A stretch of 64,000 nt of DNA from positions 1,952,001 to 2,016,000 of the forward strand of contig OZ250172.1 in assembly GCA_965237905.1 (NCBI GenBank). Direction: 5' to 3'. The DNA comes from Nitrospinaceae bacterium (GTDB taxonomy: Bacteria; Nitrospinota; Nitrospinia; Nitrospinales; Nitrospinaceae). The notes beneath the pieces were generated by a model. It saw only the letters and a list, made by a program, of their open reading frames with translations. It was not told the DNA's origin and ran no database searches. The position numbers and the translations under genes are program-made. Below, piece by piece: positions 953-59,095 of this stretch. Numbering within the stretch: the stretch's first letter is position 1; every line of letters starts with the position of its first letter.

Positions 953-1155
953 GACAGGATCACAGGATAAAATCGGGAAAAGAATCAGGGCAAACAAAGA
1001 TCCTTCACGGAGTTTATCTTGAGCCTGCCGAAGGGTTCAGGATGATAAATTGAATGTGTTTTGTCATTCTGAGCGGAATGGAATGGAGCGAAGAATCTGT
1101 ATTTTCTCTAAGAGAGAAGAGGAATTATTATCAGATTTTATCCTGTTATCCTGTC
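953..1155. repeat. Inverted repeat pair of ACAGGAT tandem units enclosing a second repeat pair
   Basis: 953-974 GACAGGATCACAGGATAAAATC matches the reverse complement of 1134-1155 (GACAGGATAACAGGATAAAATC) at 21/22. Confidence 0.85.
999..1098. repeat. REP-like inverted pair (GTCATTCTGAG...GAAGAATCT type)
   Basis: AGATCCTTC...TTCAGGATGATA (999-1047) faces TGTCATTCTGAG...GAAGAATCT (1062-1098) and the ends are near-complementary. Confidence 0.65.
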
Positions 1156-8754: not shown

Positions 8755-8765
8755 AACAAATTTAA

Positions 8766-8795
8766 CCACAGATGAACACAGATAGACACCGATGA
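8766..8795 (+). repeat. Gene-less copy of the GxxExxY-flanking 10-bp tandem repeat (3 units)
   Basis: TTAA-CCACAGATGA-ACACAGATAG-ACACCGATGA; 8762-8783 is identical to 19477-19498. Confidence 0.9.
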
Positions 8796-8868: not shown

Positions 8869-9255
8869 TTATTTTGATCCACAACTCTTTTTCAGCCAAT
8901 GGGCGAATTCAGCTTCGGTCATTTTTCCGGCGGTGAGGTCGAGGATGGCCTGGGTGGTTTCGGCTTCGGGGGCGTTCATCAATTTTCCGTTGCGGGTCAG
9001 GAATACGAAACCGGTCATGAAGGCGGTGCGCTTGTTGCCGTCGACAAAGGGATGGTTTTTGAGGATGCCGTAGATGTAGACTGTCGCCAAGGTGAAGAGA
9101 TCGGGGTCTTCGTAATGGAATATTTGTTGGGGCCGGGACAAGGCAGAATCGAGCAGCGCTTCGTCCCGGATGCCGGCAGGGCCGCCGAATTCCGCCAGCA
9201 GGACATCGTGCAGGGTCAACACCACCTCGCGCAGGACCCAGACGGGTTCCTTCAT
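8869..9255 (-). CDS. doc: Death-on-curing (Doc/Fic) family toxin
   Basis: Fic/Doc motif HPFVDGNKRTA; GIRDEALLDSALSRP. Confidence 0.93.
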   Translation of the reverse strand: MKEPVWVLREVVLTLHDVLLAEFGGPAGIRDEALLDSALSRPQQIFHYEDPDLFTLATVYIYGILKNHPFVDGNKRTAFMTGFVFLTRNGKLMNAPEAETTQAILDLTAGKMTEAEFAHWLKKSCGSK

Positions 9256-9482
9256 TCGGCCAAGGCGCGCAAGGTGTTGCGGTAATGACTCATGCCTTCT
9301 TCGGCCAACCGCATCTGTTTTTCAAATTCGGGGTCGTAAGGGGTGATCCGGTAACTGCCATCCGGGGTCTCGACCAGAAAAATCTTATCCCCGTCCTTTA
9401 AATGCAGACGTTTAAGCACTTCCCGGGGCAGTGTCACCCCCAGTGAGTTGCCGACTTTCCTGACTTTCAAATCCAACATCAT
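9252..9482 (-). CDS. AbrB/MazE/SpoVT family antitoxin
   Basis: KVRKVGNSLGVTLP; 4-nt overlap with doc; GGAGAG RBS before ATG at 9482. Confidence 0.92.
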   Translation of the reverse strand: MMLDLKVRKVGNSLGVTLPREVLKRLHLKDGDKIFLVETPDGSYRITPYDPEFEKQMRLAEEGMSHYRNTLRALAE

Positions 9483-18870: not shown

Positions 18871-19467
18871 ATGTATCTGACCAAACGCCAGAAGGAGATT
18901 TACCAGTTTCTCAAGGAGCATATCCAGTCGATGGGCTACGCGCCGAGCATCATGGAGATCTGCGCGAAGTTCAACCTGTCGTCACCGGCCACGGTGCACA
19001 AGCACCTCAGCCATATCGAGGAGAAAGGGCTCATCCGCCGCGAGCAGAACCTGAGCCGCGCCATCGAATTGGTGGAAGAGACAGCGGCGGCCCTGCCGGA
19101 GTTTCAACTGCTCGGACACATCATGGCGGGTAAACCGATCGAGGTGATCGAGGCGCGCGAGATGATGTCGCTCATGCCCGACCCGTCGGGTAAGGACATC
19201 TTCGTGCTGAAGGTCAAGGGTCAGTCGATGATCGACGACCATATCCAGGACGGTGATTACGTTATCGTTGAACGGCGCGACCAGGCGGAAAACGGCGAGA
19301 CCGTTGTTGCTCTGCTTAATAACGAATCGGCCACACTCAAACGCTTTTACCGGGAGAAGGATCACATCCGCCTGCAACCCGCCAATGCGGATATGGAACC
19401 CATCATTGTGAAAGAAGGTGACTTCAAAATCCAGGGCGTGGTCATCGGCGTCCTCCGAAAATTCTAA
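18871..19467 (+). CDS. lexA: SOS repressor LexA
   Basis: LTKRQKEI wHTH, Ala-Gly cleavage site (IMAGKP), Ser (GQSMI) and Lys (ATLKR); GGAGGA RBS. Confidence 0.95.
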   Translation: MYLTKRQKEIYQFLKEHIQSMGYAPSIMEICAKFNLSSPATVHKHLSHIEEKGLIRREQNLSRAIELVEETAAALPEFQLLGHIMAGKPIEVIEAREMMSLMPDPSGKDIFVLKVKGQSMIDDHIQDGDYVIVERRDQAENGETVVALLNNESATLKRFYREKDHIRLQPANADMEPIIVKEGDFKIQGVVIGVLRKF

Positions 19468-19475
19468 ACCATTTA

Positions 19476-19888
19476 ATTAACCACAGATGAACACAGATGC
19501 ACACAGATAAGGTCACGGAATCAATCATCAGTTGCGGTATGAAGGTGAGCAACACTTTGGATGCGGGTTTTTTGGAAAAGGTTTATGAAAACGCATTGGT
19601 TTTGGAATTGAATAAGGCTGGGTTAAAAGCGGAGCAACAAAAGAAAATCGCAGTCATGTATGAAGGTACGGTGGTTGGCGATTACTTTGCAGATGTTTTA
19701 GTCAATGATCAGGTCATAATTGAAGTGAAAGCACTAAAGGCAATTGATGAATCCCATCAAGCCCAACTTTTAAATTATCTGAAAGCGACACAAATGCGAG
19801 TGGGATTGATTCTCAATTTCGGAACGTCACGCATGGGCATCAAAAGAATGGTTTTATGATTTCCCATCTGTGTTCATCTGTGGTTAAT
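19476..19888 (+). mobile_element. Putative GxxExxY element bounded by a perfect 24-bp inverted repeat
   Basis: 19476-19499 ATTAACCACAGATGAACACAGATG is the exact reverse complement of 19865-19888; about 40% GC by hand count versus about 60% or more in sampled flanking lines. Confidence 0.7.
19497..19859 (+). CDS. GxxExxY protein (PD-(D/E)XK nuclease superfamily)
   Basis: GFLEKVY motif, ADVLV....IIEVK catalytic-type motif, QLLNYLKAT and GLILNFG. Confidence 0.93.
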   Translation: MHTDKVTESIISCGMKVSNTLDAGFLEKVYENALVLELNKAGLKAEQQKKIAVMYEGTVVGDYFADVLVNDQVIIEVKALKAIDESHQAQLLNYLKATQMRVGLILNFGTSRMGIKRMVL

Positions 19889-19900
19889 AGGGTTTGATTA

Positions 19901-21076
19901 ATGGGGTTTATGGTTAGAAATATTTTACATATCGACATGGACGCGTTTTTTGTTTCGGTGGAACAGGTACGCGATCCGTCCCTCAAAGGCAAGCCGGTGA
20001 TCGTCGGTGGCGATCCGGACGGAGGACGCGGCGTGGTCGCGGCCGCATCCTATGAAGCGCGCAAGTATGGCATCCATTCCGCGATGCCCGTTACCCGCGC
20101 CAAACGGTTGTGTCCTCATGCCATCTTCCTGCGTGGGACGCATGGACTCTACAGCGAATTTTCGGCGCGCATCTTCGCCATCCTCGATCGCTACTCGCCG
20201 CTGGTAGAACCGATGTCCCTCGACGAGGCGTACGTCGACTTGACCGGGTGCGAGCGCCTGCACGGTCCCATCACCGAAACGGCGGTGCGGATGCATGACG
20301 AGATCAAAAACCAGGTGGGTATCAATGCTTCGGTCGGCATGGCGGCCAACAAGCTGATGGCGAAGATCGCCTCCGGAATGTCGAAGCCCGACGGACTCCT
20401 GCGCATCCTGCCGGGCCACGAGGCGGCGTTCCTGGCGCCGCTTTCTATCGGGCGCATTCCGGGCATCGGACCCAAAAGCGTTGAGGAGTTCAAGCGCATG
20501 GGCATTCATACCGTGCGCGATCTTTCAGCACTTCCGCTGGAGTTACTGGAGGAGGCACATGGCGAATGGGGGCACCGTCTTTATGAAAAAGCGCGCGGCA
20601 TCAGTCATTCGCCGGTGATGAAGCGCGACGACACCCGCTCGATCAGTCGCGAGACGACGCTGGACGAGGACTCAACCGACCCGGCGTTTCTGGAATCGAC
20701 GCTCAGCTGGCTGGTGGAGAAGGCGGCGTCGCAACTGCGCGAGGAAGGCCTCCGCGCCCGGTGCGTGTCGCTGAAACTACGCGACTCGAATTTCAAGACG
20801 GTCACCCGCTCGCACACGTTGAACGAAGCCGCTTGCGAAGACCACGTCATCTTTGATACGGTAGCAGGCTTGTTCCGCAAATTGTTCACGCAAAAGACGC
20901 GCGTGCGGTTGGTCGGCGTGGCGCTCACGTCGCTCACCTCCGGCACGTCGCCGCAGATGGAGTTGTTCGAAAACCTAGACGCCGAGCAGTGGCAGAAACT
21001 GTATCAGGGCATCGACCGCATCCGCGACAAATACGGTTTCCGTTCCATCTTAAGAGGATCGAGCGTTATCAATTAA
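19901..21076 (+). CDS. dinB: DNA polymerase IV (Y family)
   Basis: HIDMDAFF, AASYEAR, SLDEAY and KIASGMSKPDG; the start may be 19910. Confidence 0.96.
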   Translation: MGFMVRNILHIDMDAFFVSVEQVRDPSLKGKPVIVGGDPDGGRGVVAAASYEARKYGIHSAMPVTRAKRLCPHAIFLRGTHGLYSEFSARIFAILDRYSPLVEPMSLDEAYVDLTGCERLHGPITETAVRMHDEIKNQVGINASVGMAANKLMAKIASGMSKPDGLLRILPGHEAAFLAPLSIGRIPGIGPKSVEEFKRMGIHTVRDLSALPLELLEEAHGEWGHRLYEKARGISHSPVMKRDDTRSISRETTLDEDSTDPAFLESTLSWLVEKAASQLREEGLRARCVSLKLRDSNFKTVTRSHTLNEAACEDHVIFDTVAGLFRKLFTQKTRVRLVGVALTSLTSGTSPQMELFENLDAEQWQKLYQGIDRIRDKYGFRSILRGSSVIN

Positions 21077-41548: not shown

Positions 41549-42565
41549 TTATCTTTTATGGAAATTTCTCTTTATCAAACTGGAAATATATCTTAAGGGT
41601 CTCGTTATTTTCCATGACTGACTTTTTTGAATTTGAAGAAGCTCCTGGTTGAGGCTGGCGATCTGTTGTTGGTAGGGAGCTCCGATTTTTTGCTCCTGAC
41701 GCGTCAAGTAGTGTAAGGCAGGGGCAAGGCGTGACAGCTCTTTTGAAAGATCGTCAAACACATCTTCGACTTGGGGCGAATCCAGCGCGATCTTGTCATT
41801 AGCCAATTGCTCCAGAAGCTCATAAGCGGATATAACCGGTGCTGGCACAGATGCGTCAAGGCGCAAATCCCGAGTTTCGTATCGTGTGTGACGTAGTCCT
41901 TCCTCCAGAAACTCATTCTTATAAGCAGCAAGAGCGGAAGGATCCGGCTCGGACAACCCAAGCGCATTGGCAACACACGCTAATTCCAACCCAGGATCGT
42001 CAAGCAGGCGGTCGTAATCAACCACCACGCGCTTGAAGTCTTTTGTGCCAACAATCGCCGGCACGACATGTTCCAACCACAAGTAGAAACTTTTCTCTGG
42101 CTCAAAACCATCCCGGTTTCGCAGGGATTGAGCAACACTGAGGGGGTTACGTAGGGCGATGACGTAACTAACATTATAGTCACCCTGCTCAAAAACACGT
42201 TGCCAAAATAATAATAACCGAGACATTCGGGGATCTTTAATGCCGAAAATGGAAATCTGTTTCGTTTTCTCTCGCAATAACTCAAGCGCACGTCCAAAAA
42301 AGCCCGTGTTGAGTATATTTAAAAGTTTTTCAGTGGTAACAGGCGCAAGGGAATGCCAGTCAGCGCCAACGGACTGCAATAGTTCAGCGTTGAACGCATT
42401 TATCTCTGCGTCTTCCCAAAAACCTTTTATATTGTCCGGATTTGCGGATAATAGCGAGCTCCCAAGCTCCACGCCTAACAACTGCAAACTGCGGGCGATA
42501 GCACTGGTACCACTGCGGTGCATACCAAGTACGACGATGATGCGTTTTCCGTTCTCTTTATTCAA
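41549..42565 (-). CDS. Sulfotransferase-like P-loop protein with coiled-coil tail
   Basis: VLGMHRSGTS, GFWE, KDPR, RNPLSVAQSL..R and SQSWKITRPLR. Confidence 0.8.
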   Translation of the reverse strand: MNKENGKRIIVVLGMHRSGTSAIARSLQLLGVELGSSLLSANPDNIKGFWEDAEINAFNAELLQSVGADWHSLAPVTTEKLLNILNTGFFGRALELLREKTKQISIFGIKDPRMSRLLLFWQRVFEQGDYNVSYVIALRNPLSVAQSLRNRDGFEPEKSFYLWLEHVVPAIVGTKDFKRVVVDYDRLLDDPGLELACVANALGLSEPDPSALAAYKNEFLEEGLRHTRYETRDLRLDASVPAPVISAYELLEQLANDKIALDSPQVEDVFDDLSKELSRLAPALHYLTRQEQKIGAPYQQQIASLNQELLQIQKSQSWKITRPLRYISSLIKRNFHKR

Positions 42566-58936: not shown

Positions 58937-59095
58937 CTTCGTGTCCTCCGCGGTGAATTTTTCCTGAAAAATCCTGTTATCCTGTCTAAAATTTCATCTT
59001 ATTATTTTTGTCCTAATCGGTGTCCATCTGTGTCCATCTGTGTTCATCTGTGTTCATCTGTGGTCAATTGGTTTTCTCTGTGTCCTCTGTGGTGA
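58937..59095 (-). repeat. Stack of short tandem repeat families, including 5 units of the GxxExxY-flanking decamer
   Basis: 9-bp family at 59074-59095 and 58937-58956; decamers at 59016-59063; ACAGGAT family at 58971-58986. Confidence 0.88.

Follow-up and report, generated by a model that had tools for sequence, protein, structure and literature searches.

Introduction

In the Ssn system, a small single-domain nuclease gene carries a cognate oriented repeat (NTS/SRM) on both sides, and copies of this repeat are scattered through intergenic DNA (Chenal et al. 2025, PMC11893778). As presented in that paper, Ssn is a GIY-YIG enzyme whose repeat is a hairpin and whose cleavage activity was shown in vitro; Ssn homologues have different repeats, 42% of the genes were reported to be flanked by the repeat, and domestication was proposed (PMC11893778). 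The RAYT (TnpA-REP) proteins are described as HUH tyrosine transposases, which cut and join, and the REPs as imperfect palindromes with a GTAG tail (PMC5581495, PMC8266576, PMC3733652). In the same accounts, RAYT genes are low-copy, mostly vertically inherited and rare on plasmids, their inverted repeats also occur as gene-less pairs or mosaics, and the protein groups co-evolve with their repeats. PF13366, the family of the GxxExxY proteins, is entered as 'Unknown', with multiple transfers, in the list given in PMC3424549.

Here we describe a GxxExxY gene that lies between two arrays of a 7-base word in inverted orientation (the arms) in a window of 64,000 nucleotides, the whole stretch of DNA analysed, from a Nitrospinaceae genome (G000). 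The original prediction, made from the letters of the window, had likened the locus to RAYT/REP, and the analogy is a fair one. The pairing of gene and arms is real and widespread. It is also apparently unpublished: searches of open PubMed Central and bioRxiv returned no account of repeats flanking GxxExxY genes.

Results

The cassette between lexA and dinB

The elements first noticed in the window were recovered (Table 1): an exact 24-bp inverted repeat encloses a 120-aa GxxExxY ORF, with three words on the left and two on the right, and the cassette splits the lexA-dinB pair. The gene-less recurrences of the repeat reported near 8766 and 59016 likewise correspond to arrays. The window contains 10 copies of the CACAGATG core where 1.36 would be expected, a count reached in none of 100 shuffles. 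Nine of the 10 copies lie inside the window's three arrays, and the isolated one is at 41846. The GC content of the cassette is 0.40, matching the estimate of about 40%, while the '60% or more' given for its neighbours was slightly high for lexA (0.556; dinB, 0.594).

Table 1. Features of the lexA-dinB cassette and gene-less arms of the window.
Feature	Positions	Strand	Description
Gene-less inverted ACAGGAT 8-bp pair	953..1155	.	encloses Ssn-type hairpins; cognate to the paralogue outside the window
Gene-less solo arm, 10-bp family	8762..8793	+	12 nt past a stop codon (crude ORF call)
lexA	18871..19467	+	TIGR00498, 204.6 bits; upstream; stop 9 nt before the arm
Left arm	19476..19510	+	A/T-rich head (TTAAC), then three CACAGAT words (19482, 19492, 19502) at 10-bp spacing
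Perfect inverted repeat, 24 nt	19476..19499 / 19865..19888		built of 10-bp units
7-codon upstream frame	19487..19510	+	MNTDAHR-stop, from the first word; overlaps the gene start in another frame
GxxExxY gene	19497..19859	+	120 aa, predicted PD-(D/E)XK fold; TIGR04256 143 bits, PF13366 137 bits
Right arm	19865..19888	-	head and two CACAGAT words, inverted; pairs over 24 nt with the left arm
dinB, DNA polymerase IV	19901..21076	+	NF002677, 343.2 bits (cut-off 256); downstream
Gene-less tandem composite of three arm families	58971..59091	-	CACAGAG 9-bp 59076-59091; CACAGAT 10-bp 59016-59067; ACAGGAT 8-bp 58971-58985

The TTAA at either end, which had been offered as part of the inverted repeat or as a target duplication, lies within the 24-nt inverted repeat. 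TTAAC is the start of 26 of the 35 10-bp arrays of G000, solo arms included, and TTAA is therefore part of the arm. The cassettes that occupy the same site in another family start with TAGCC, AAACC or GCACC. TTAA as a target duplication was rejected.

The left arm provides the GxxExxY start codon and first codons (MHTDK). When folded as DNA, single arms, the left arm of the cassette among them, formed no hairpin (0.0 kcal/mol), and only an inverted pair is predicted to fold. In the predicted RNA, left and right arms form a perfect stem of 24 bp (fold z -3.18), and the start codon has a predicted unpaired probability of 0.04-0.11.

A predicted PD-(D/E)XK nuclease

The protein passes the TIGR04256 cut-off of 35 bits over the whole model (positions 2-116 of 116), and the GxxExxY motif is present as GFLEKVY. 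Residues G24, E27, Y30, D66, E76, K78 and L95 are invariant in 97 sequences, and Q90 and Y94 are nearly so. A QxxxY motif is a mark of RecB/Cas4-like nucleases acting on single strands. The structure model (pLDDT 94.8) contains the core fold of PD-(D/E)XK proteins with its E, D and ExK residues, and the catalytic residues are predicted to be intact on a Cas4/RecB-like core. Cas4 SSO0001 (Z 8.4, rmsd 3.6, 99 residues aligned) and the BpuSI nuclease domain, also at Z 8.4, shared first place among the fold matches. The top Foldseek matches were Cas4, lambda exonuclease and Hjc, with a best E of 1.5e-3 and none at E≤0.001. The tRNA splicing endonucleases were weaker fold matches (Z 5.4-6.1), and DNA nucleases outranked RNA nucleases in both fold searches. 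A sequence search for a solved structure of a close relative returned one match, at chance level. A common fold by itself demonstrates no function. The family was found in 8 of 72,556 plasmid records, all non-mobilizable, in none of 50,697 phage records and at 5 loci of IMG/VR.

GxxExxY genes are flanked by inverted word arrays

From 207 loci collected, 155 were kept as full-length and non-redundant with a flank of sufficient length; the remaining 52 were partial, short-flanked, broken, duplicate or without a hit. This sample over-represents relatives of two query proteins and a single bacterial class. At 137 of 155 loci, inverted arrays of at least two tandem words stood on either side of the gene, compared to 9 of 155 when the downstream flank was shuffled. 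The corresponding count for direct orientation was 51. Moreover, in a separate scoring of the first 101 loci, an inverted match was obtained at 85, against none of 84 control windows. The arms have a common word grammar, C-R-C-N-R-A-N or ACAGGAT, and usually contain three words each. That gene and arms are associated is virtually beyond doubt.

The co-variation of word and protein phylogeny implied by the original prediction was also observed. On the protein tree, whose clades are strongly supported, word class changes 16 times against a shuffled mean of 61.4, and none of 200 shuffles gave so low a number. Since kin share labels and the arms travel in cis, this match of word to clade reflects long co-inheritance, not recognition; plain cis co-inheritance also results in clade-matched words.

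The spacing of words was 10 bp in 230 of 248 cases in the GAT-word class and 8 bp in 114 of 149 in the AAG-word class. The 10-bp spacing is restricted to words ending in GAT, AAT, GAA or GAC, and the CGCAAAG/CGCGAAG, CRCAGAG and ACAGGAT clades have spacings of mostly 8 or 9 bp. Helical phasing, proposed earlier as a principle of the repeats, was abandoned as a family rule because of the 8-9 bp spacing in the AAG, GAG and ACAGGAT classes.

CGCAAAG doublets are present in 15 of 18 GxxExxY-positive genomes and in 3 of 43 negative relatives, counts in which kin are not independent. They are absent from G000 and G010, where the GxxExxY genes are of other clades. Residue 7 (T or S) was compared with word position 5: proteins with A-words have 36 S, no T and 6 other residues, and those with G-words have 81 T, 12 S and 2 other. 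As a specificity residue it was rejected, the comparison comprising only three independent pairs (sign test p 0.5, not significant). No other specificity column stood out among the columns listed.

GxxExxY homologues occupy many unrelated operon gaps across phyla. At 92 loci with crude ORF calls, the gene is co-directional with its upstream neighbour in 78 and with its downstream neighbour in 67, and the arm head usually lies about 30 nt or less from the upstream stop. In G038, the whole cassette with its arms is tandemly duplicated at a spacing of 619 bp (L040/L053, G038:C17:22448-23417).

History of the lexA-dinB and bioA-queD sites

Thirty dinB loci were fetched, and the full lexA-dinB junction was available in 25. 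GxxExxY is present in four of these junctions (G000, G010, G053 and, with an internal stop, G041). Three further copies at the same site were found through the gene itself (G033, G077, the latter with the same flanks as L062, and L066), and the gene at lexA-dinB is known from seven genomes of two families; L062 and L066 are named records of Nitrospinaceae. Between G000 and G010, GxxExxY has a dN of 0.060 and a dS of 0.638 (dN/dS about 0.09), and the neighbouring genes have dN/dS pairs of 0.030/0.516 (lexA) and 0.069/0.545 (dinB). The bioA-queD paralogue has diverged similarly (dN 0.067, dS 0.761). These values mark the lexA-dinB gene as an old resident under purifying selection. No near-identical second copy of it was found in G000. 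The self-contained, currently mobile element of 410 bp first envisaged does not agree with a gene held at one site by seven genomes of two families, diverged like its neighbours and lacking a near-identical copy.

A recent insertion at lexA-dinB was rejected in view of the host-like divergence and of the occupation of the same site in two families. Low third-position GC (0.31-0.44; surrounding genes, 0.40-0.82) is a feature of all seven same-site copies of this old resident gene. In L041 (G033) and L369 (G077), the right arm is missing after the GxxExxY stop and another gene intervenes before dinB.

G008 is nearer to G000 than G010 is at lexA, dinB, bioA and queD, yet it lacks both GxxExxY genes. 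Its lexA-dinB gap contains a decayed right arm and other hairpins, as do those of G009, G007 and G002, the last being an assembled junction without GxxExxY. At bioA-queD, G008 and six other relatives have a clean stop-to-start junction, and G026, from another family, has kept a right-arm remnant. Empty-site alleles, from which ends and a target duplication were to be read, were clean at bioA-queD in seven relatives, but the gene-less alleles of lexA-dinB often keep a decayed arm, with no duplication.

In family f2, the gene distances are at odds with the lexA/dinB distances. On the host tree, presence of the gene at lexA-dinB requires 6 changes against a shuffled mean of 6.4, three of the seven positives having been fetched via the gene; since presence is unclustered, gain and loss are indistinguishable at this site. 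No joint skipping the cassette was detected in the assembled contigs, which drop rare variants, of two runs that contain the locus and are possibly the window's source. Together, these comparisons suggest a gene that has long been resident, has often been lost and has to some extent been exchanged at the same site.

Gene-less arms are the ends of mosaics

G000 contains 35-36 arrays of CACAGAT at 10 bp, the figure varying with the clustering rule. A second GxxExxY paralogue, 47% identical, lies in the bioA-queD gap (L001, G000:C1:590595-591069) and is bracketed by its own inverted array, ACAGGAT at 8-bp spacing. This 8-bp family is dispersed in G000 as 32 arrays. A third arm family, CACAGAG at 9 bp, accounts for 19 arrays and has no gene there.

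Inverted partner arrays were found on the tail side of 37 of the 87 arrays of G000 and on the head side of none. No inverted partner is present within about 400 nt for 50 of the 87, and several partners come from another family. A 10-bp arm opposite an 8-bp arm cannot pair with it; the polarity is nevertheless retained in such mixed pairs. Foreign hairpins adjoin the tail only of 45 arrays, the head only of 7, both ends of 3 and neither end of 32. They are of two kinds, one found on the flanks of an Ssn-like GIY-YIG gene in G020, the other on those of DUF559 genes in G000 and its relatives, and at the arms of G000 the SRM-type hairpins are found solely as cargo between arms. Hairpins of the Ssn or DUF559 type are located no more than 200 nt from 23 of the 36 10-bp arrays, so the arms could ride on other nucleases. 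Gene-less elements are mosaics with GxxExxY-type arms at their outer edges, heads outward.

The strand of the arms relative to neighbouring genes follows no single rule in G000 (crude ORF calls). Arms are scarce from about 2.83 Mb to 0.59 Mb of this genome, where one array was found, and this arm-poor stretch surrounds the cumulative GC-skew maximum (116 kb, putative terminus).

Among 20 arm loci of G002 and G008, 14 could be mapped to G000, and eight of them, which represent six distinct sites, lack a 10-bp arm in that genome. One site has the same outer arms in G002 and G008 around different hairpins, and is empty in G000. Seven of 20 G020 arm loci mapped to fetched blocks of G013, none of which has an intact doublet. 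Finally, five G020 sites were compared with three congeners: two of the sites are empty in every congener, and the other three are common to at least one. The two new insertions took the place of about 15 and about 80 nt of host sequence, and no target duplication was seen on comparing filled with empty alleles. As these two sites are empty in the congeners, their arms were probably gained on a branch now without the gene. Gene-less arms are dispersed and polymorphic.

In G020, an arm-capped mosaic replaces the spacer between two putative tRNA genes, recognised by eye (L160, G020:C1 ~9100-9430). In G019, an unrelated small A+T-rich ORF is located where G020, G013 and G017 have arm mosaics (L328, G019:C1 ~1022750-1023390).

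Arm-rich genomes without the gene, and other small nucleases

Two genomes are rich in arms, with 36 CACAGAT doublet matches in G020 (single contig, 96% complete) and 43 in G002 (97% complete, 80 contigs), and no GxxExxY gene was matched in either, even with the family alignment at E≤1. Of the 61 genomes surveyed, 27 that are GxxExxY-negative contain one or more CACMGAT doublets. Repeat number follows the gene for CGCAAAG and does not for CACAGAT, as G002 and G020 show. With G020 arm-rich in the absence of the gene, the gains either preceded a recent gene loss or used other machinery.

An Ssn-like GIY-YIG gene lies between SRM-type hairpins in G020 (L210, G020:C1:561063-561278). Ssn-type hairpin matches occur without an Ssn match in G002 (155), G010 (75) and G000 (26-27). 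The biochemically proven Ssn pair is thus equally loose, and the pattern of repeats without a gene weakens neither pairing much. Absence of the gene lowers the case for a role of GxxExxY in spreading but does not refute it.

DUF559 genes were found in all five genomes tested. Of the 20 arm loci of G020, 16 are near DUF559-type hairpins and 9 near Ssn-type hairpins. The DUF559 genes L214 (G000:C1:2957452-2957760), L221 (G000:C1:2708248-2708562), L215-L217 and L222 are flanked by their own C-rich/G-rich hairpins, and a loose pattern of the DUF559-type hairpin gives 344 matches in G000. On sequence grounds, DUF559 and its hairpins may represent a third pairing of a small nuclease with a repeat. 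No description of this pairing was found in open PubMed Central or bioRxiv.

Discussion

We propose that the GxxExxY enzyme would bind its own 7-base word and nick the DNA near the arm head, and that recombinational repair would then copy the arms, with the hairpins they enclose, into intergenic gaps. To judge from the junctions, the predicted cut would fall about 7-17 nt outside the head. The substrate would be DNA, either single-stranded or as a paired stem, the arm alone forming no hairpin. To our knowledge, PD-(D/E)XK hydrolases have no joining chemistry, so that spread would need host repair. The gene itself would move rarely, through the same copying, into operon gaps. That the protein recognises its word is probable in our estimation. 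For the whole sequence of events, in which a resident nuclease binds the word array, nicks near the head and leaves host repair to copy arms and cargo, the chances seem evenly balanced. The stem formed by both arms in the mRNA is predicted to hide the start codon and would thereby limit the amount of a self-targeting nuclease; for an enzyme that has 35 targets on the chromosome, a buried start codon is plausible as a brake. Placement between lexA and dinB may tie expression of GxxExxY to DNA damage here. Since homologues lie in many unrelated operons, no SOS function is assigned to the family.

The widest form of the proposal is tentative, and we would sooner doubt it than rely on it. The many GxxExxY proteins would then all be 120-aa nucleases with sequence specificity, each of which reads its own 7-base word in triplicate and serves as the end-cutter in a community of three enzymes, with Ssn and DUF559 as the others. 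The arms would define slots, with the hairpins of other nucleases as exchangeable cargo, and mosaics and genes would home into intergenic gaps by nick-and-copy without a transposase.

It is unlikely, but conceivable, that the arms are cis-regulatory passengers. Their RNA stem would then silence a nuclease that is either useful to the host or toxic, and they would spread only within mosaics moved by Ssn, by DUF559 nucleases or by ordinary recombination. The position of the start codon inside the predicted stem agrees with this; any inverted sequence, however, gives a stem, and the three-word grammar across phyla is left unexplained. So is the strict head-outward polarity, which extends to mixed ends that cannot pair. 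G020 and G002 are arm-rich without a GxxExxY gene, as expected of passengers, but the Ssn pair likewise has repeats without its gene. Carriers are at hand in the Ssn-like gene of G020 with its hairpins and in the DUF559 genes, and many arms of G020 are near hairpins of both types, yet the 32 of 87 arrays of G000 without an adjoining foreign hairpin are not accounted for.

An RNA-level system is distinctly improbable. The arms would pair in the transcript, as in ORF-bearing rRNA intervening sequences, and the loop would be excised by RNase III or by the protein, which would make operon insertions tolerable. The perfect 24-bp stem is predicted at lexA-dinB, but more than half of the arrays (50 of 87) have no inverted partner nearby and several partners are cross-family. 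Co-direction with the flanking genes and the closeness of the arm head to the upstream stop are compatible with such a system. The tRNA splicing endonucleases are among the weaker fold matches, below the DNA nucleases in both searches, and an RNA role alone copies no arms round the chromosome.

Least probable of all is an autonomous 410-bp element with terminal inverted repeats and a TTAA duplication, recently inserted at lexA-dinB: the low GC of the cassette, the many operon gaps occupied across phyla, near relatives in Acidobacteriota at another site, the clean bioA-queD alleles and the distance conflict in f2, which points to some lateral exchange, would suit it, but TTAA is the arm head, the genome has no near-identical copies, two families share the site with host-like divergence, gene-less lexA-dinB alleles often retain one decayed arm with other hairpins, new insertions replace host bases without duplication and the gene is rare on plasmids and phages, so that its 'recent' and 'TTAA duplication' parts are largely refuted.

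If the nick-and-copy proposal is true, HUH and GIY-YIG are joined by a third, unrelated chemistry among the systems that pair a nuclease with a repeat, a common class of intergenic mosaics is explained, and very small nucleases with natural specificity variants become available. The orphan PF13366 family gains a candidate substrate that can be read from the flanks of each gene, as for Ssn, and G000, with two paralogues and two different words, is a built-in control.

Like Ssn, the GxxExxY gene has an oriented repeat on both sides (137 of 155 loci), which is dispersed in intergenic DNA. It differs in being of the PD-(D/E)XK type, not GIY-YIG, with a nuclease activity predicted from the fold, and its arm, built of 7-base words in tandem, is non-palindromic and unfolded alone, whereas the Ssn repeat is a hairpin. 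As in RAYT/REPIN, inverted cognate repeats surround the gene, are abundant genome-wide and also form gene-less pairs; the gene is low-copy, without recent duplicates except for the tandem pair in G038, mostly vertically inherited and rare on plasmids. The protein, however, belongs to PF13366 and is not an HUH Y1 transposase, and PF01797 had no match in G000. Nor is the arm, at 0.0 kcal/mol alone, an imperfect palindrome with a GTAG-type tail.

The nearest folds are Cas4/RecB-like (SSO0001, PDB 4ic1), with a common E...D...ExK core and the near-invariant QxxxY. Unlike Cas4, GxxExxY is a minimal core of 120 aa whose conserved columns do not include the iron-sulphur cysteine set; it has no CRISPR or helicase context, and its Z score is tied with restriction-enzyme domains. 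With IS elements and MITEs the system shares a gene or cargo between terminal inverted repeats, and the multi-word arms recall Tn7- and Mu-type ends, which consist of several tandem sites. Unlike IS elements and MITEs, it lacks a DDE or HUH transposase, a target duplication and a multi-copy gene, and its element ends vary by about 7-17 nt outside the head. It also differs from rRNA intervening sequences, the cassette lying in the lexA-dinB gap and not in an rRNA gene. By analogy, GxxExxY with its arms would work like Ssn/SRM and RAYT/REPIN while being a member of neither.
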